Source: an uncultured virus (IMG/VR IMGVR_UViG_3300038428_000082) (lineage: Duplodnaviria > Heunggongvirae > Uroviricota > Caudoviricetes). Taken from it: DNA of 20,000 nt. The stretch lies in the IMG/VR virus record IMGVR_UViG_3300038428_000082; one strand, 5' to 3'. Below, piece after piece: positions 2,746 through 16,499 of this stretch. A program made the position numbers and the translations under genes. Numbering within the stretch: the stretch's first letter is position 1; the number at the start of each line of letters is the position of its first letter. The notes under the pieces are model-generated. The model searched no databases. It was not told the origin of the DNA and saw only the letters and a program-made list of their open reading frames with translations.

Positions 2746-2825
2746 TGGAAGCCCCGAGGGGATTTGAACCCACTGACCTTCGGTTTCGTAGACCGCTGCT
2801 CTAGTCCGGGCTGAGCTACGGGGCC
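2746..2825 (-). tRNA. trnR: tRNA-Arg(ACG)
   Basis: GCGGT-CT ACG AA-ACCGA, TCCA end. Confidence 0.9.
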
Positions 2826-3232
2826 TCAATCTTGTACCAACCTCTTTCTTTCGCTGTTTTACGACGGTGACAGTTGGCGCATCGCACGTCGCACTTAACT
2901 ATCTCAGCCTTTATCGTCTTTAATGATGCCTTCATTTGTGTCATTAAAGTTGAAACGGCTGCTAATTTCTTTTCTCCTTCCCGATGGTCAAACTCAAGGA
3001 CTATCGGGTCAGATTCTCCACAGTCGATACAGGGGTGAGTCATCAAATACTGTAAGACCCACTCTATGGCTTCTTTCCTATACCTTGCACCATTCCGTTT
3101 CGCTTTTTCAACATACGAGGTCTTATTCCTCTCGTAGTTTTGCTTATTGTAGCCTCGCTGGCATTCGAGGCAGTATGGTGCTGACCGGTGCTCTTTTTCC
3201 TTACCACATTTGTAACAGTTCTTAGACCTCAT
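2816..3232 (-). CDS. HNH endonuclease inside the tRNA array
   Basis: PCIDCGESDPIVLEFDH...CDVRCANCHRRKT; stop codon overlaps the 5' end of tRNA-Arg(ACG). Confidence 0.85.
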   Translation of the reverse strand: MRSKNCYKCGKEKEHRSAPYCLECQRGYNKQNYERNKTSYVEKAKRNGARYRKEAIEWVLQYLMTHPCIDCGESDPIVLEFDHREGEKKLAAVSTLMTQMKASLKTIKAEIVKCDVRCANCHRRKTAKERGWYKIEAP

Positions 3233-3514: not shown

Positions 3515-3589
3515 TGGGGTGACTGAGGGGAATCGAACCCCCGTATCCTGATTCACAGTCAGGCACTCTGCCACTGAGTTACAGTCACC
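3515..3589 (-). tRNA. trnH: tRNA-His(GUG), first tRNA of the array
   Basis: G-1, CCTGA-CT GTG AA-TCAGG, C73-CCA. Confidence 0.95.
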
Positions 3590-3644
3590 ATAAACGCAAA
3601 AAACCCACCCAAAAACCCATCTTATGACTTCCACTGTCTTTAAT

Positions 3645-4001
3645 ATGGGACAGTGGATTCATAGAATGCTTTTTGTTAACAAAGAAACTAAAACCGGGCT
3701 TTGTGCCGCCTGTGGAGATGTTAAAGTGCGACTCAAAGGTGGTAAGTATCTTTGCCGTAACTCACAAGCCCGTTGGACTGGAAGGTGTAACTACCCCTCT
3801 CATCCATACCGAGATAAGTCAAACCCCCCGAGAGTCTGCGATGAATGCGGCTTTGTTGCTAAATGCTCGTGCCAGATTGACATCCATCACATTGATGACA
3901 ACCACGCTAACAATCAGCCAGAGAACCTCCGTCCTCTATGCGTATGTTGTCACCGACTCATTCACTGCAAGTGCAAAATAAAAAAGCCCACAGAACCTTG
4001 A
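3645..4001 (+). CDS. HNH endonuclease, antisense to the tRNA operon (start revised to ATG 3645)
   Basis: CDECG...IDIHHIDDNHANNQPENLRPLCVCCHRLIH; preceded by the shared GACTTC-N5-TCTTTAAT motif. Confidence 0.85.
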   Translation: MGQWIHRMLFVNKETKTGLCAACGDVKVRLKGGKYLCRNSQARWTGRCNYPSHPYRDKSNPPRVCDECGFVAKCSCQIDIHHIDDNHANNQPENLRPLCVCCHRLIHCKCKIKKPTEP

Positions 4002-4012
4002 GTTCGGTGGGC
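3980..4012 (-). terminator. Intrinsic terminator (attenuator) upstream of the tRNA array
   Basis: GCCCAC-C-GAAC-TCAAG-GTTC-T-GTGGGC followed by TTTTTTATTTT. Confidence 0.88.
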
Positions 4013-4071
4013 ATCCTTGCACTCTGTTCGCTTTTTCGCTATGCGACTCCTGCGAACGGAAGCCCACCGAA
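4003..4071 (-). promoter_or_regulatory. Antiterminator helix, mutually exclusive with the terminator
   Basis: TTCGGTGGGC (4071-4062) is the exact complement of the terminator 5' arm GCCCACCGAA (4012-4003); inner TCC/GGA and GTTCGC/GCGAAC pairs extend it. Confidence 0.82.
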
Positions 4072-4134
4072 GCTTGGGCGGCTAAAATGCCGCTTAGGCT
4101 GCCACTGCATCGGGTTTGGTTTCCTATTTCGCAT
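4039..4134 (-). CDS. Leader peptide MRNRKPNPMQWQPKRHFSRPSFGGLPFAGVA (31 aa), putative tRNA-sensing attenuator peptide
   Basis: GGAGAG-AC-ATG start, TAG stop 26 nt before the terminator, codons match the downstream anticodons. Below the ORF-track size cutoff. Confidence 0.82.
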   Translation of the reverse strand: MRNRKPNPMQWQPKRHFSRPSFGGLPFAGVA

Positions 4135-4147
4135 GTCTCTCCAAAAC

Positions 4148-4215
4148 TGGTGCCCCTTTCGGGGCGTAAAATGGTAGGGGCTTTCGCCCCCTCAAACTGG
4201 TGGGCCTTTCGGCCC
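4148..4215 (-). repeat. Three tandem GAAA-tetraloop hairpins each followed by ACCA and a U-rich trailer
   Basis: GGGCC-GAAA-GGCCC-ACCA GTTTG; GGGGGC-GAAA-GCCCCT-ACCA TTTT; GCCCC-GAAA-GGGGC-ACCA GTTTT. Confidence 0.85.
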
Positions 4216-4318
4216 GGAATCTTGTGAGGCTGACCGGGTAACAATATCGTCCGGCTCCCCGCCTCAATTTTACCCCTACAAGTATAGGGTCGGTAGTTCG
4301 TTTTCTTCCTTCACTTAC

Positions 4319-4334
4319 ATAATACCACGGTTTT
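4319..4334 (-). promoter_or_regulatory. Putative promoter of the tRNA operon (AAAACCGTGGTATTAT, extended -10-like)
   Basis: Related AAAA-N2-4-RGTATYWT boxes at 11120-11134, 13258-13272 and 18942-18956 (-) and 19351-19365 (+); TGTGGTATACT at 10416-10426. Confidence 0.6.
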
Positions 4335-4579
4335 GGGAGAATATGGGGATTTTTTTAATCGGCCATTTATTTACTGTGAACCTAACTTTAGTTCCCGATA
4401 ACTTGTCTGATTTCCATTGGTTAGCCGTTCAGCCCGTATATCCCCGGTATTACCTCAAGGGCTGTCCAAATACTTCCCACCGGTCAACAAACCCGTCACT
4501 TCCTTTGTAACCCCGGATAAGCCGATTGGAGTTAATGACCGGATTAGAGTAAAGCGGCATCGTGGGAACCATAATGTAT

Positions 4580-5041
4580 TCAGGTTCCCTCCCATGAAAT
4601 TTCCAACCAAGTATGATACATGTTGTAGGGTGTCTCGGAGCCGCATTCGCCGCCGCTGTTCAAATAAGCGGCACTGTCATCATGCTCCACCCACCCTTCT
4701 TTGACCGTGACTTTGTAGCCGTCTCGGCGTAGCTTGGTGATGATTTTCTTTAGCTCGGCAGCGAACTCAAAATTCTTGAAAAACTTCTGTTCCCCGGCAA
4801 GCGGGCGGTCAGTCCAATTCTCCGTGGATAGCCGGTAGTCTTCAATTTTTGTTATGCCGTCTTTTATACGGGCGTCAATACGCCATTGAATGTCTTCGAG
4901 AGTTTTGGCGTAGTACTCTTTCCGCTTTTTCTCTTCCGCAGCCGCCCGCTGAACCTTGCGCTTGGCGGACTCCTCCACTTTCTCCCGAGCAATACGTTCA
5001 GCGTTGGTCTCAGCGAGCGCCCTTGCTTCCGCTGCCCTCAT
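4580..5041 (-). CDS. Hypothetical protein with an N-terminal coiled coil
   Basis: ATG overlaps the stop of the upstream gene (ATGA); charged helical N-terminus. Confidence 0.7.
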   Translation of the reverse strand: MRAAEARALAETNAERIAREKVEESAKRKVQRAAAEEKKRKEYYAKTLEDIQWRIDARIKDGITKIEDYRLSTENWTDRPLAGEQKFFKNFEFAAELKKIITKLRRDGYKVTVKEGWVEHDDSAAYLNSGGECGSETPYNMYHTWLEISWEGT

Positions 5042-11137: not shown

Positions 11138-11497
11138 CTATTTCCGCAGAGCTTCCAAATACCAATGGGGAGGCCACTCAAGTTCAGGGTCTAGGTAACC
11201 GGGGCGCATCTCGAAGCGGTATTGGTAGAGCTTGTTGACCGCTTTCATGTGACGGTCCCATGCACGGGCATCGGGATAGCACCAGTGTTGCTTGCCATCA
11301 CGCTTCCAGTTGTAGACATCGTTCCAGTGGCATTCACGGAAGTGGGGGAATATAATATCGGTTTCGGGGTCTTTGAGAGCTTGGTGGACCCAAGCATTTT
11401 GAGAACGACGGACACCTCGGTGAGCTATCCGTTTGTCGTCCTTGCAGGAGCCGACACCACAGACAGCCACGTAGGGTTTGCGGTAAGAGCGGGACAT
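11138..11497 (-). CDS. Small basic hypothetical protein (MSRSYRK...)
   Basis: AAGGAGGT RBS. Confidence 0.75.
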   Translation of the reverse strand: MSRSYRKPYVAVCGVGSCKDDKRIAHRGVRRSQNAWVHQALKDPETDIIFPHFRECHWNDVYNWKRDGKQHWCYPDARAWDRHMKAVNKLYQYRFEMRPGYLDPELEWPPHWYLEALRK

Positions 11498-11582: not shown

Positions 11583-12503
11583 TTACTTGGGTCCTTTTTC
11601 GTTCATACGATTTATCTCCTCCTTCATAAACCGCAGTTGTTGCAGAGTTTTTTCTGGTATTCCTTTGCATCCAGGATTGATGTTTTTTACCAAAGTTTGA
11701 AAAGCCACTGCCAAGTTTGCTTGGGCGGTCTTGATGATTAAGTACGGCCATATCCTACGAAGAATATCTTCAGCTTTTGAACTCGTCCATATCATCGTAT
11801 AGCAGTCCTTGTGGATTTTCCTTCGCCCTTTTCTTCTAACCGTAGTCGCTCCCCATCTTTTCTCAAGGTAATTTTTGAGGGTTTCTGAAGTATTATAGAC
11901 CCTTATGGATAGACGGTAAGCCTCCCGGCGCTTTGTTTCCCTTTTTACGATTGAAATGGTCCCTTCTCCATCTACGAGGGCAGCGAGATGAGAAGCACTT
12001 TGTACGGGGTCATTAAGGTCTGGAAACTCGTTCCTTTGTATTCCCCAGGTTTCTAGCCACTCTATCTCTTGAGAACTAAGCGGACATGGAGACGGATTTC
12101 CCGGCTTCCAAGGGTGGATATGGTCGGGGAGATTATTAAGTTCTGGGGGCCTCTGTCCGGTGTATACCCATATAGATGTTTGTAGGGCGTTAAGCAGGTT
12201 CCACATAGCTTGTGAAAGATGGGGTTCACTTCTGTCACCCTCTAAATGAGCGGTTATATGCCTTATAGCGCTATCAAGCAAATCCGCAATCTTCATCCCG
12301 TTCTCCCAATTACGGGTGTCTCCATTACCTGTTCCACCTGAGAGAAGGTCTCGTTGTTTGTTACCTATTTCATAGATGCGAGAAACCATCTTAACGGCTG
12401 TCCAGGGCATCCAGTGAAATGCTCCCTTGCCTATACGACTGTCTCGTTGTGCTCCAGTGGAATATATAGTCTCTGCTGTGGCACTTTTTTTGAATTGTTC
12501 CAT
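11583..12503 (-). CDS. dATP/dGTP diphosphohydrolase-like (DUF5664) domain fused to a LAGLIDADG endonuclease domain
   Basis: TGAQRD..GKG.F...P / RNWENG / DSAIRHI..HLEGD..EPHL..A.WN, then HLAALVDGEGTISI...PYLIIK..QA. Confidence 0.82.
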   Translation of the reverse strand: MEQFKKSATAETIYSTGAQRDSRIGKGAFHWMPWTAVKMVSRIYEIGNKQRDLLSGGTGNGDTRNWENGMKIADLLDSAIRHITAHLEGDRSEPHLSQAMWNLLNALQTSIWVYTGQRPPELNNLPDHIHPWKPGNPSPCPLSSQEIEWLETWGIQRNEFPDLNDPVQSASHLAALVDGEGTISIVKRETKRREAYRLSIRVYNTSETLKNYLEKRWGATTVRRKGRRKIHKDCYTMIWTSSKAEDILRRIWPYLIIKTAQANLAVAFQTLVKNINPGCKGIPEKTLQQLRFMKEEINRMNEKGPK

Positions 12504-13286: not shown

Positions 13287-14135
13287 TCATATTTGACAAT
13301 GTTGGCATCTTAAAACTGAAATTCCTCGATTTATATGCCAACGTTGATGGTTTCCTAAGTTACTTTTACCTAGGTTCTTTGAAGCTTCCAAATGTTTAGG
13401 AGTTAAAAGGTATGGTCTTTTTATCCTTTTTGGCATTAATATACGGATGGGCATCACAGGTTTAATGCCTTGTTCTTTCTCTCTTTTGCGTCTAAGGAGT
13501 TGTGCATTTGACCTATTAGTATAACATTGTGGGGATTGAATAGCTCTACGAAGACTTTTTAACCTTTTTATTTCACTTTCTTCGTTTTTTGGTTGTTTAG
13601 AATAACACAAATGTGAACAGTATATTTTTTCTTTCCTTCCAAATGAAACAGAAAATGATTTACCACACACCGGACAGACCTTGTTTATCTTTGGTCTACT
13701 ATTTAATTTCTTGGTTTCACTAATTTTTATATTAGAAAGTCTTTTAGTTTCAGAATTTCTAGGGTCTCTGTGCCAAGCCATTTTCATTTTGCTTTGATTT
13801 TGCTTCCATTCCTCAGAATGCGGCCCTGTAAATCCCTCTCCTCCCCGGCATATGTTGTACCCACACTCAGGGTCCTGCGACCGCAGGAACTTAATAAAGT
13901 CTCTTTCGGTCTGGTCAAGCTCTGTTTTATTCTGGATATCGGAACGTAGGGCGTAAATAGACCAGAGAGAAGACTGTGGATATTTTCTCATTGCATTGAA
14001 AAGGTGAGAACTTCCATTGTGCTGATGCCGAGCAGCGGATAACTTGGTTTGAAGATACTTTCTAAGATTGTTTCCCTTATGCTGACCGACATAATATTTG
14101 CCGGTCTTATGATTAACGATAAGATAAATGAACAT
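13287..14135 (-). CDS. GIY-YIG homing endonuclease
   Basis: FIYLIVN..TGKYYVGQ...E..FI......GYNI..GGEG; AT-rich; basic C-terminal DNA-binding region. Confidence 0.9.
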   Translation of the reverse strand: MFIYLIVNHKTGKYYVGQHKGNNLRKYLQTKLSAARHQHNGSSHLFNAMRKYPQSSLWSIYALRSDIQNKTELDQTERDFIKFLRSQDPECGYNICRGGEGFTGPHSEEWKQNQSKMKMAWHRDPRNSETKRLSNIKISETKKLNSRPKINKVCPVCGKSFSVSFGRKEKIYCSHLCYSKQPKNEESEIKRLKSLRRAIQSPQCYTNRSNAQLLRRKREKEQGIKPVMPIRILMPKRIKRPYLLTPKHLEASKNLGKSNLGNHQRWHINRGISVLRCQHCQI

Positions 14136-15400: not shown

Positions 15401-15868
15401 TTAAGGTTTCCTCACATAATCTTCCGCCATCCCGATTTCGGTCAAGCCGAGGTTACACTCACCGAGGAATTTCCTCGTAGCATTGAAGGAAGCTGTCCAG
15501 CGGGTCAGAGCGTCGGCGGATGGGTTGGGGGCCACAAAGTGGAAGATGCCTGCCTGTGCCATCTGCACGGCACAACGGATGCAACTCATGAAAGGCCACA
15601 TGTAAAGAACGCACCCGTTTACCGGTCTATTGGCGAAAAGCAGGGCGTTGATTTCGCAGTGAACCACGTGGTCATATTTGTACGTCCGGTCAGCGTAAAG
15701 CTCGGGGTCATCCTTGGCTCCCTGCGGAAAGCCGTTGAATCCCACACCCACGACAGACTTGTTCGGGCGCACGATTACCGCCCCCGTCTTAGTACTTGTA
15801 TCTTTTGACCATGAGGCTATGTGTGCTGCTAGTTCTAAAAATCGCCTATCCCATTTTTCGTTGAACAT
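15401..15868 (-). CDS. dCMP deaminase
   Basis: WD.RFL.LA..IA.WSKD..TKTGAVIV, GFNGFP.G, HCEINA, P..SC..C zinc motifs. Confidence 0.93.
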   Translation of the reverse strand: MFNEKWDRRFLELAAHIASWSKDTSTKTGAVIVRPNKSVVGVGFNGFPQGAKDDPELYADRTYKYDHVVHCEINALLFANRPVNGCVLYMWPFMSCIRCAVQMAQAGIFHFVAPNPSADALTRWTASFNATRKFLGECNLGLTEIGMAEDYVRKP

Positions 15869-16499
15869 GCCACTCCTTTATGCTCTGGCTAATCTTTCTT
15901 CTGCTTTTAGGACTATGACGCCGAGAACATCTTTCTAATACTTGTTCGGGAGACAATTTTCTTCCCCTTAATGCCGAAGATATTCTGAGTTTTTCGTCCT
16001 TGGTCCGAGATTTCCCAAACTGGGGGTTACGTGCTCCCCCTTGGGCTTCCCGCATTTTCTCTTTGGTCTTGTCACTATGATGTCGCCCCTTCCAATGAGT
16101 AGGAACAGAGGAGTATCTTTCCCGCTGTGCTGTGGACATATTCTCTTTTGCTCTATCAGAAAACCTTCTGCCTGTGTTTAGGATACTTATAGAAATGGCG
16201 GCTTGCTGCCTTATATACTCGTACTCCCTAGAATTTATATGAAGCTCACAGTTCTTGCTATGTAGAAATCTATGCAAAGCCAGAATCATTTTACATCGGT
16301 TTCTACCTTCGGTAAACTTGGCTAGAAGACGGTGAGCAATGAAGTGCTGCTTTCCAGTTAGCCACACCAAGTTGTCTTTCCGAGAGCTACCACCCAAGGA
16401 TTGGGGGATTATGTGATGAGATTCATAATATCTACTTAGCTCAAGAGGGCTGTTCTTAGCTTTATCTATAAGCTGGTAGTAGATTTTCTGGTAATTCAT
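15846..16499 (-). CDS. HNH homing endonuclease with NUMOD3-like repeats
   Basis: ESHHIIPQSLGG...NLV.LT..QHFIAH.LL; KGRHHSDKTKEKM-type repeats. Confidence 0.9.
   Translation of the reverse strand: MNYQKIYYQLIDKAKNSPLELSRYYESHHIIPQSLGGSSRKDNLVWLTGKQHFIAHRLLAKFTEGRNRCKMILALHRFLHSKNCELHINSREYEYIRQQAAISISILNTGRRFSDRAKENMSTAQRERYSSVPTHWKGRHHSDKTKEKMREAQGGARNPQFGKSRTKDEKLRISSALRGRKLSPEQVLERCSRRHSPKSRRKISQSIKEWHVQRKMG

Follow-up and report, generated by a model that had tools for sequence, protein, structure and literature searches.

The stretch of DNA analysed here, 20,000 nt in length and referred to below as the window, is taken from the reverse strand of a 99,272-bp record of an uncultured virus (IMG/VR IMGVR_UViG_3300038428_000082, Caudoviricetes), which is 53% complete. 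All 16 tRNA genes of the window lie on the minus strand, between 3588 and 194, and upstream of them, in the leader of this tRNA operon and read on the same strand, are three short hairpins, each directly followed by ACCA, at 4148-4215. These three hairpin-ACCA units are the subject of this report. Searches with the neighbouring proteins led to five IMG/VR contigs, three of which are practically identical to the window, while the other two (L009 and L010) represent a second sequence type, referred to as the L009 type. One of the latter two is 316,945 bp long and 99% complete, showing that the phage, which comes from peat, is a jumbo phage and that the window record is a fragment. A more distant relative, L046, possesses the same leader and lacks the units.

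Three hairpin-ACCA units with tRNA-like flanks

Unit 1 (4198..4215, minus strand) reads GGGCC-GAAA-GGCCC followed by ACCA, and unit 3 (4148..4165, minus strand) reads GCCCC-GAAA-GGGGC followed by ACCA. Between them, unit 2 (4172..4191, minus strand) reads GGGGGC-GAAA-GCCCCU followed by ACCA, and can be drawn either with 6 bp, the first pair being G.U, or with 5 bp and an additional U. The spacer GTTTGA (6 nt, 4192..4197, minus strand) serves as the trailer of unit 1 and the leader of unit 2, the spacer TTTTAC (6 nt, 4166..4171, minus strand) separates units 2 and 3, and the trailer GTTTTG (4142..4147, minus strand) follows unit 3 and closes the inserted block on its 3' side. On the 5' side, the block starts with a linker, ACAAGATTCC (4216..4225, minus strand), which doubles as the tRNA-like 5' flank of unit 1 and is absent from L046. 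The starts of the three GAAA loops are exactly 25 nt apart. The initial annotation, made from the letters of the window, had described three G/C stems of 5-6 bp, closed by C-GAAA-G and followed by ACCA and a U-rich trailer, and this description is borne out on the minus strand.

When both strands of the 99,272-bp record were scanned for GAAA-capped stems of 5 bp or more that run into ACCA, only these three were returned. In 200 dinucleotide-preserving shuffles, such units occurred at a mean of 0.055 and a maximum of 2, compared with the 3 observed, and when any GNRA loop was admitted in the same scan, 4 were observed against a shuffle mean of 0.295. The folding energies of the individual hairpins range from -10.0 to -11.6 kcal/mol, and in the context of the leader their pair probabilities are 0.91-1.0.

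The stems were further compared with each other and with their counterparts in the closest relatives. Units 2 and 3 are identical in these relatives, and unit 1 of the L009 type reads GGCCC-GCAA-GGGCC followed by ACCA. Within the block, the L009 type differs from the window by the paired changes G4213 to C and C4204 to G, which turn a G-C pair into C-G, by A4209 to C, which turns the GAAA loop into GCAA, and by the loss of G4147; all of these changes are predicted to be neutral for the structure. Alignment of the four distinct stems (the three units and the orthologue of unit 1) gave pairing in 20 of 20 cells, with three of the five pairs changed on both sides, confirming the compensatory changes claimed earlier; the observed covariation score was matched by just 2 of 500 shuffles. 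Invariant throughout are the first G-C pair, the closing C-G pair, the GAAA/GNRA type of the loop, and ACCA. The hairpins are thus real, strongly non-random, under selection at the RNA level, and unusual. The initial annotation also made its proposal depend on conservation of ACCA in homologues, and this holds for the closest relatives, which keep ACCA in all three units, and not for L046, in which the whole block is missing.

The units are not parts of annotated tRNA genes. No tRNA cloverleaf was found at 4148-4215 by ARAGORN, which gave 16 tRNAs in the window, or by Rfam, which gave 15, and no Rfam tRNA match appeared in this interval even at E values up to 10. The consensus scan listed no intrinsic terminator at 4148-4215; each stem is separated by ACCA from a run of just 3-4 U, and a contig from an RNA library continues through all three units. 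Two open reading frames (ORFs) that cross the block (3936..4244 on the minus strand and 4087..4227 on the plus strand) were rejected, as the 1-nt deletion of the L009 type disrupts them and the block is missing from L046. Docking of the GAAA loops into an 11-nt tetraloop receptor was likewise rejected: the candidate CCUAAG (4097-4092) is CCCAAG in L046, and no UAUGG partner was seen.

The annotation had likened the units to tRNA acceptor ends, noting that CCA-GTTTGAGG also follows tRNA-Asn at 2525. The latter is correct, and the likeness is backed by the discriminator A, by the position in the leader, and by 5' flanks and 6-nt spacers of the kind found among the tightly packed tRNA genes of the phage. 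CCA is encoded by 26 of the 27 phage tRNAs of the record, with A as the commonest discriminator (14 of 26). Spacers of 5-7 nt account for 7 of the 26 between tRNAs (e.g. gatttg, aatttg and aatttac), and both inter-unit spacers, at 6 nt, have a similar look. In each unit, the helix runs directly into a single-stranded RCCA, and leader and trailer resemble those of pre-tRNAs from the same genome, as would be looked for in a mimic of an acceptor end.

The resemblance of the flanks was scored with a weight matrix, built from the 7 nt preceding each of the 27 tRNAs, and ranked against background positions. The 5' flanks of units 1, 2 and 3 scored 3.54, 3.64 and 4.38, with a median of 3.88 for the real tRNAs, and fell within the top 1.8%, 1.7% and 0.95% of the background. 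With a 3'-trailer matrix, the units ranked in the top 11%, 9% and 2%, the trailer of unit 3 scoring 4.03 (top 2.1%); since every spacer enters both tests, once as a trailer and once as a leader, they are not independent of each other. The 5' flank of unit 2 matched the tRNA-leader matrix only in the 6-bp register (3.64, vs -5.07 in the 5-bp register). Its G.U first pair is found also in phage tRNA-Arg(tct) and tRNA-Arg(cct), and the ...tttac|G junction formed by the TTTTAC spacer also precedes tRNA-Ser(gga), tRNA-Arg(cct) and tRNA-Arg(tct). The sole tRNA of the 27 without an encoded CCA is one of three tRNA-Met(cat) genes (G000:C1:71553-71628, about 1801-1876 on the minus strand of the window), for which ARAGORN gives the end ...GCAACC|ttga.

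The surrounding leader and its relatives

The leader itself has a putative extended -10 promoter, TGgTATTAT (4319..4327, minus strand), which was read by eye and predicts an RNA start near 4312. The consensus promoter scan did not list this site, because its -35 region in the window is poor. TATTAT is present also in L009, and in L046 it is preceded by TTGAAT at a spacing of 17 nt. Downstream of the predicted start lies a two-tier helix, H-A (4226..4265, minus strand), with an outer GAGGC/GCCUC helix, an inner GCCGG/CCGGU helix and a 13-nt apical loop (-14.1 kcal/mol). The block follows, and after it comes a sensor-like core of about 90 nt (4051..4141, minus strand), closed by P1 (UGCGAA, 4133-4128, with UUCGCA, 4056-4051) and containing a small GCCCA...UGGGC hairpin with a UUCG loop (4079-4062, minus strand). 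A hairpin resembling an intrinsic terminator, with its U6 run, occupies 3980..4016 (minus strand; stem 4012-3986, U6 3985-3980; -16.7 kcal/mol), and was not listed by the simple consensus scan because its stem has one mismatch. The annotation's statement that the units lie upstream of the terminator thus holds, the hairpin and U6 being at 4012-3980.

The 3' arm of the small core hairpin (region 2, 4070-4058, CGGUGGGC...) is complementary to the 5' arm of the terminator (region 3, 4016-4002) in all three lineages, so that region 3 can pair with region 2 instead and form an anti-terminator. The 2:3 duplex has an energy of -23.5, -16.1 and -25.7 kcal/mol in the window, L009 and L046, respectively, compared with -16.7, -15.1 and -25.6 kcal/mol for the terminator and about -8 kcal/mol for the 1:2 hairpin. 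Regions 2 and 3 of L046 have other letters than those of the window and are still complementary. The leader is accordingly modelled as a putative attenuator with mutually exclusive 1:2, 2:3 and 3:4 pairings, a candidate new riboswitch-like element for a phage tRNA operon. The attenuator spans 4141-3980 (minus strand) in the window, 11590-11746 in L009 and 10863-11034 in L046, and the three units are located 5' of the switch, outside its pairings. At gathering scores, Rfam reported tRNAs only in the window; at relaxed scores, with T-box included, the window leader (3900-4450, E up to 10) and the L046 leader (E up to 1) gave only chance-level rows, the best at E 0.45 or worse and E 0.028 or worse, respectively. 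A long-range pairing of UCUCCCAAAAC with GUUUUGGAGAGA was considered and rejected, since it is lost in L009 and its position is upstream of where the RNA probably starts.

Between the terminator and tRNA-His (3515..3588, minus strand; ARAGORN and Rfam), which is the first gene of the 16-tRNA array at 3588-194, the window carries an HNH homing-endonuclease gene on the plus strand (3624..4001; Pfam HNH_3 at E 7.6e-4, below the curated cut-off, and PHROG HNH endonuclease at E 4.3e-5). A partial copy of the terminator 3' arm and U-run (GGTGGG-T6, 3609-3598) stays beside tRNA-His, within the stretch 3598-4016 that holds the HNH gene. The L009 type has no HNH gene; there the terminator hairpin and U-run lie 12 nt before tRNA-His, from which it follows that the array can be transcribed only by read-through of the hairpin. 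A second tRNA array of the record, outside the window (Tyr-Leu x4-Ser x3; G000:C1:49900-49950), has a leader of unrelated sequence, and a G/C hairpin with T6 (GGCGGC-taacaa-GCCGCC-TTTTTT) lies 4 nt upstream of its first tRNA, so that the design of a terminator directly before the first tRNA recurs.

The leader is better conserved than its surroundings. Over the stretch that begins at the predicted start and ends with the core, the window is 96.6% identical to the L009 type (8 mismatches and 1 gap in 261), and the tRNAs of the two are 99-100% identical, compared with DNA identities of 91.0% and 84.5% for the adjacent protein genes. L046 was reached through a profile of the family of the 160-aa protein encoded upstream of the leader, in which it shows 49% protein identity, and it has a syntenic tRNA array. 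Its core is 82% identical over 94 nt, while the adjoining protein genes align at 69-76% over parts of their length only. In its H-A, the inner helix and the ends of the loop are kept, and the outer helix is re-formed with other letters (GACGGU/ACCGUC, -16.7 kcal/mol). L046 has a terminator too, and a mere GAA (3 nt) takes the place of the approximately 85 nt at 4225-4142 of the window. Judged from this alignment, the three units are a lineage-specific insert of about 85 nt in an older, conserved leader. The retention of core and terminator in L046 without the block indicates that the block is an accessory insert and not part of the conserved attenuator. Elsewhere in its leader, L046 has one 7-bp GAAA hairpin, which is followed by GCAUCAAAAC and not by ACCA.

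High-depth DNA contigs from three peat or wetland DNA runs matched only 4090-4141 and 4625-4695 of the window, with the match ending at 4141; their loose ends match the L046 leader, and they apparently derive from a phage of the L046 lineage. The expected tRNA-His of L046 was not called by ARAGORN, and Rfam gave only a sub-threshold tRNA-like match (22 bits) at 11159-11235, about 125 nt past the terminator. An anticodon-like GTG, a T arm and a ...GGTCACC-CCA end are visible there, and this may be a divergent tRNA-His.

Transcription of the region was examined in one wetland RNA library. A 1353-nt contig of the L009 type, with a depth of 21.7, runs from 4266 across the units, the core, the terminator and tRNA-His, and extends 976 nt further into the tRNA array; a contig covering 4300-4427 has a depth of 2.3. 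The step in depth hints at a start near 4312 and read-through of the terminator, with which it is compatible. Contigs of this kind are blind to RNA ends, the library may also contain DNA, and a variant site is found 20 nt from the break at 4266. Stretches without contig cover were not used as evidence.

The genes upstream of the leader encode the 160-aa protein, which could be assigned to no family, and a nucleotidyltransferase of the RlaP family (Pfam PF10127, E 1.7e-13; PHROG 388, E 4.6e-39). RlaP is described as putting one or two nucleotides onto the 3' ends of damaged RNA (PMC12776372). In the L009 type, an extra 4.7 kb between the 160-aa gene and the leader (L009 6417-11359) encodes a radical-SAM protein, a NAD-dependent epimerase and a cREC_REC (cyclic-phosphate processing receiver) protein. 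G003, the relative that is 99% complete, further encodes a 454-aa class II nucleotidyltransferase of the CCA-adding type (L196 1438-2802); its top-scoring NCBIfam model is CCA tRNA nucleotidyltransferase (282.8 bits; cut-off 290). No RtcB was found in the three records searched. On the minus strand of the window, at 11583-12503, a 306-aa ORF combines the N-terminal domain of a dATP/dGTP diphosphohydrolase with a homing-endonuclease part, which has a weak Pfam LAGLIDADG match and is HNH by PHROG; further homing endonucleases are at 421-1134, 2816-3232, 13287-14135 and 15846-16499.

To establish how widely the units occur, the region was compared with 50,697 GenBank phage records by megablast and blastn, and no match was found. 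A tblastn search of GenBank phages with the neighbouring 340-aa protein gave only distant nucleotidyltransferases (161 records, all below 60% identity), and a metagenome scan with the RlaP protein gave nothing beyond the contigs already known (3 loci). The feature is known from one phage lineage, with two sequence types and five public contigs.

Pattern searches were carried out for analogues of unrelated sequence. Among viral contigs, a two-unit pattern matched 27 loci, and both stems reached at least 5 bp only in the 5 family contigs. A pattern for a unit after any ACCA matched at least 120 viral loci; among the matches listed, 10 had full stems, 5 of them being the family, and the other five (three distinct sequences) were rejected as chance-like, having no preceding hairpin. 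Two conserved 17-nt patterns from the core matched 13 viral loci each, of which 6 were the known family and 7 were unrelated. Counts of other hairpin-NCCA units in the whole records of the relatives were at control level. In 185,579 prokaryote genomes (one per species), the two-unit pattern gave 123 matches at 112 loci; 11 matches, in 4 loci, had both stems of at least 5 bp, and L155 was a weaker fifth locus. All of the prokaryote arrays found are tandem copies of one unit, none beside tRNAs and none with diversified stems, and no analogue with different stems was found among the matches listed from the viral and prokaryote collections scanned. A literature search did not find a natural array of acceptor microhelices, which does not prove that none is in print.

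Several of the arrays encountered are described here for their own sake. L178 (3569-3700, G005:C272), from a Clostridia metagenome-assembled genome, has five tandem 24-nt copies of CCGCC-GAAA-GGCGG + ACCA + GTCAYG in the 5' untranslated region (UTR) of a gene for the S-component of an ECF transporter; a Fumble-type pantothenate kinase gene comes next. L179 (3782-3925) and L180 (4119-4186), both of G006, hold related tandem repeats of UUUCCC-GAAA-GGGAAA-CCAG...; the former is a 26-nt non-coding array in a divergent intergenic region, and the latter, which corresponds to the array of L155, has a 27-nt unit and is coding, running in frame through the N-terminal signal region of a lipoprotein-like ORF. 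The viral contigs L013, L026 and L034 contain long tandem arrays of a 27-nt unit, CCCC-GAAA-GGG-C-GACC-ACA-GGTC-GATA, which is unrelated to the units described here; in L034 the array reaches the end of the contig.

Possible functions of the units

The reading that we favour, at a probability of roughly 45%, is that the units are tRNA-end mimics, which would be read by the enzymes of tRNA maturation, mainly RNase P and those trimming the CCA end. The cassette (4225-4142, minus strand) would then be a miniature tRNA array in the leader of the main tRNA operon, placed between H-A and the sensor/attenuator core, in which each unit would copy the signals at the end of a tRNA gene: a G/C helix starting with G, a discriminator A, CCA, and a 6-nt U-rich spacer. 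Among the model substrates described for bacterial RNase P RNA are hairpins that combine an acceptor-type helix with a 3' RCCA (PMC4975455), and a small non-tRNA substrate is reported to be cleaved in an RCCA-dependent manner (PMC12710915). From the tRNA-like form of the units and their flanks, we infer cleavage of the leader, as well as later effects of the cut leader or of the microhelices set free by it. With the helix and RCCA as its guide, RNase P would cut at the 5' G of every helix, and cleavage of the trailer with exonuclease trimming would halt at CCA. Three RNAs of 18-20 nt, each a microhelix with ACCA, would result, and the cuts would separate the 5' part of the leader from the part with the sensor and terminator. 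As the cassette lies upstream of the terminator, such processing would be independent of read-through into the tRNAs. The products might act in cis, in maturation or turnover of the leader, or in trans, by titrating a factor that binds CCA ends; the presence of three units upstream of the terminator suggests that dosage matters and would favour a role in trans, as a decoy or sponge. The lineage has RlaP beside the leader, cREC in the L009 type and an enzyme of the CCA-adding type in G003, which makes a conflict over tRNA ends plausible. On this evidence, the units would be non-tRNA elements that borrow the signals of tRNA maturation.

Several points weigh against this reading. The helices, at 5-6 bp, fall far below the 12-bp acceptor/T stack that tRNA enzymes usually measure, so that the coaxial helix of about 12 bp with a T-loop-like cap, the remaining hallmark of an acceptor-end mimic, is replaced by a short stem with a GAAA cap. 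When GAAA replaces the T-loop of model substrates, cleavage is lowered or misdirected, which has been shown with plant PRORP1 and is stated to apply to E. coli RNase P RNA as well (PMC4975455). The -1 nucleotides of the units are C, A and C, as against U in most of the phage tRNAs. The only RNA data are assembled contigs, which are blind to ends, and one of these is unbroken across the three units. L046 has the same leader and terminator without the cassette, which makes the cassette dispensable for the attenuator, and its 7-bp GAAA hairpin without ACCA raises the possibility that GAAA-capped G/C hairpins are a general feature of the leader, to which ACCA is secondary. Finally, the tRNA-like flanks could have been inherited from an origin in a tRNA array and not have been selected.

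The same 7-bp hairpin is among the facts that would fit a different function, also raised by the initial annotation, in which the units are protein-binding hairpins similar to boxB: a phage RNA-binding protein on the nascent leader would let the polymerase read through 4012-3980 and the structured array. The units are GNRA-capped 5-bp G/C stems, upstream of a terminator-like hairpin that transcription of the array must pass, and the 12 nt between this terminator and tRNA-His in the L009 type leave no room for a separate promoter. The change from GAAA to GCAA keeps the GNRA loop, and three sites would fit a multimeric binder. We nevertheless consider this unlikely. The leader already has an RNA switch, whose 2:3 anti-terminator co-varies in three lineages, and the loops of the units are true tetraloops, while those of lambdoid boxB are pentaloops. 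Neither an N-like protein nor a boxA was identified, and neither was searched for. The invariant ACCA, the tRNA-type 6-nt spacers and the 5' flanks are left unexplained by a boxB-like site.

In a purely structural role, the GNRA stems would serve as folding insulators between H-A and the core, or as barriers to exonucleases, with ACCA and the spacers left over from an origin in a tRNA array. The high stability of the stems and their independent folding (-10 to -11.6 kcal/mol, pair probability about 1) fit this role, and the cassette occupies a linker that has just 3 nt (GAA) in L046, so that expansion is tolerated there and the cassette can be dispensed with. Such a role seems improbable, however, given that at least three pairs are flipped among the units, yet ACCA, the first G-C pair and the tRNA-type flanks are intact in all of them, and that an insulator needs neither three units nor ACCA.

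The trans role taken by itself, in which trimmed units are decoys or sponges that titrate a factor acting on CCA ends, such as a toxin of host defence or a host enzyme such as RNase P, draws on all of the evidence for tRNA-end mimicry. Three units are placed in each transcript before the terminator, with a dosage independent of read-through into the tRNAs, and RlaP, cREC and the CCA-adding-type enzyme of the lineage make damage to tRNA ends a plausible pressure. Presence or absence among relatives is typical of accessory counter-defence, and FaRel2 (10.1101/2024.07.05.602228) and MenT (PMC10435456) are examples of toxins directed at the CCA end or the acceptor stem. Decoys would, however, compete with the very large cellular pool of tRNAs, and FaRel2-like toxins are described as inspecting the acceptor stem for specific tRNAs (10.1101/2024.07.05.602228), while no target has been identified to which the stems of the units correspond. 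We therefore regard decoys or sponges as distinctly unlikely. The fuller proposal, that the units form a constitutive minimal acceptor-end array, trimmed by the host, whose products would be trans decoys or sponges for toxins of the toxSAS or MenT kind, or ligands feeding back on the adjacent attenuator, is in our view similarly doubtful.

It is very improbable that the units are decayed tRNA genes or a DNA-level element (a repeat, a protein-binding site or a recombination scar) with no function as RNA: the region is rich in homing endonucleases and rearrangements (the HNH gene at 3624-4001 and others within the array), the distribution is lineage-specific, and units 2 and 3 are similar to the acceptor ends of a neighbouring pair of genes, tRNA-Arg(cct) and tRNA-Arg(tct), but neutral decay breaks stems and does not flip pairs, C-GAAA-G is not what each of three independent deletions would leave behind, perfect palindromes of differing sequence would be unnecessary in a DNA-binding repeat, and the change in the loop keeps GNRA.

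Acceptor microhelices have been a laboratory tool for decades, in work on RNase P, synthetases and CCA-adding enzymes. Processing of the units as mimics of tRNA ends, if it takes place, would mean that the phage exploits for purposes of its own the minimal module recognised by the tRNA-maturation machinery, possibly for shaping a regulatory leader or for making small CCA-ended RNAs. If the decoy or feedback reading were true, they would represent a new class of RNA-based counter-defence or regulation by phages, built from the smallest piece of a tRNA. The units are narrowly distributed and dispensable for the conserved leader. The leader itself, conserved and structured, with a terminator and anti-terminator before the tRNA array of a jumbo phage, implies control of the supply of tRNAs by an RNA switch.

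Comparison with known systems

Besides RNase P, synthetases and CCA enzymes also accept acceptor microhelices as substrates. The mini- and microhelices used as model substrates of RNase P (pATSer type) resemble the units in having a short looped helix, capped by GAAA in some, with RCCA and a short 5' leader (PMC4975455, PMC12710915). They are laboratory constructs, mostly with the 12-bp acceptor/T stack, whereas the units are natural, have 5-6 bp, and stand three in tandem, with different stems, in the leader of a phage operon.

Among natural phage RNAs, the C4 antisense RNA of P1 and P7, the CI RNA of P4, the M3 RNA of phi80 and the species 1 RNA of T4 are matured by host RNase P through a stem and CCA. 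Like the units, these are non-tRNA helices with CCA in a phage transcript. Each has a single site and yields one functional regulatory RNA, whereas the three minimal units would release nothing longer than 18-20 nt.

The boxB element of the lambda nut site shares with the units a 5-bp G/C-rich stem, a loop with a GNRA-type fold, and a location in a leader upstream of terminators. Lambdoid boxB has a pentaloop, occurs once per nut site together with boxA, and has no ACCA, whereas the units have tetraloops, number three, and carry ACCA.

T-box leaders read the NCCA end of a tRNA. The phage leader is similar to attenuators and T-box leaders in its mutually exclusive 1:2, 2:3 and 3:4 pairings and in ending with a hairpin and U-run. 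In contrast to the T-box, which reads the end of a tRNA, it contains ACCA within itself, and tRNAs are the genes that it would regulate.

Tandem arrays of RNA repeats are known from the type III antitoxins (ToxI-like). No ToxN/AbiQ-like gene lies beside the cassette, where the neighbours are RlaP, the 160-aa protein and HNH (a PADLOC scan was not made). ToxI-like arrays, L178 and L179 resemble the phage units in consisting of small head-to-tail hairpins with a period of 24-26 nt, and L178 even has the same order of hairpin, ACCA and 6-nt spacer, in the 5' UTR of an ECF gene and not by tRNAs. The copies in those arrays are near-identical, whereas in the phage all of the stems differ.

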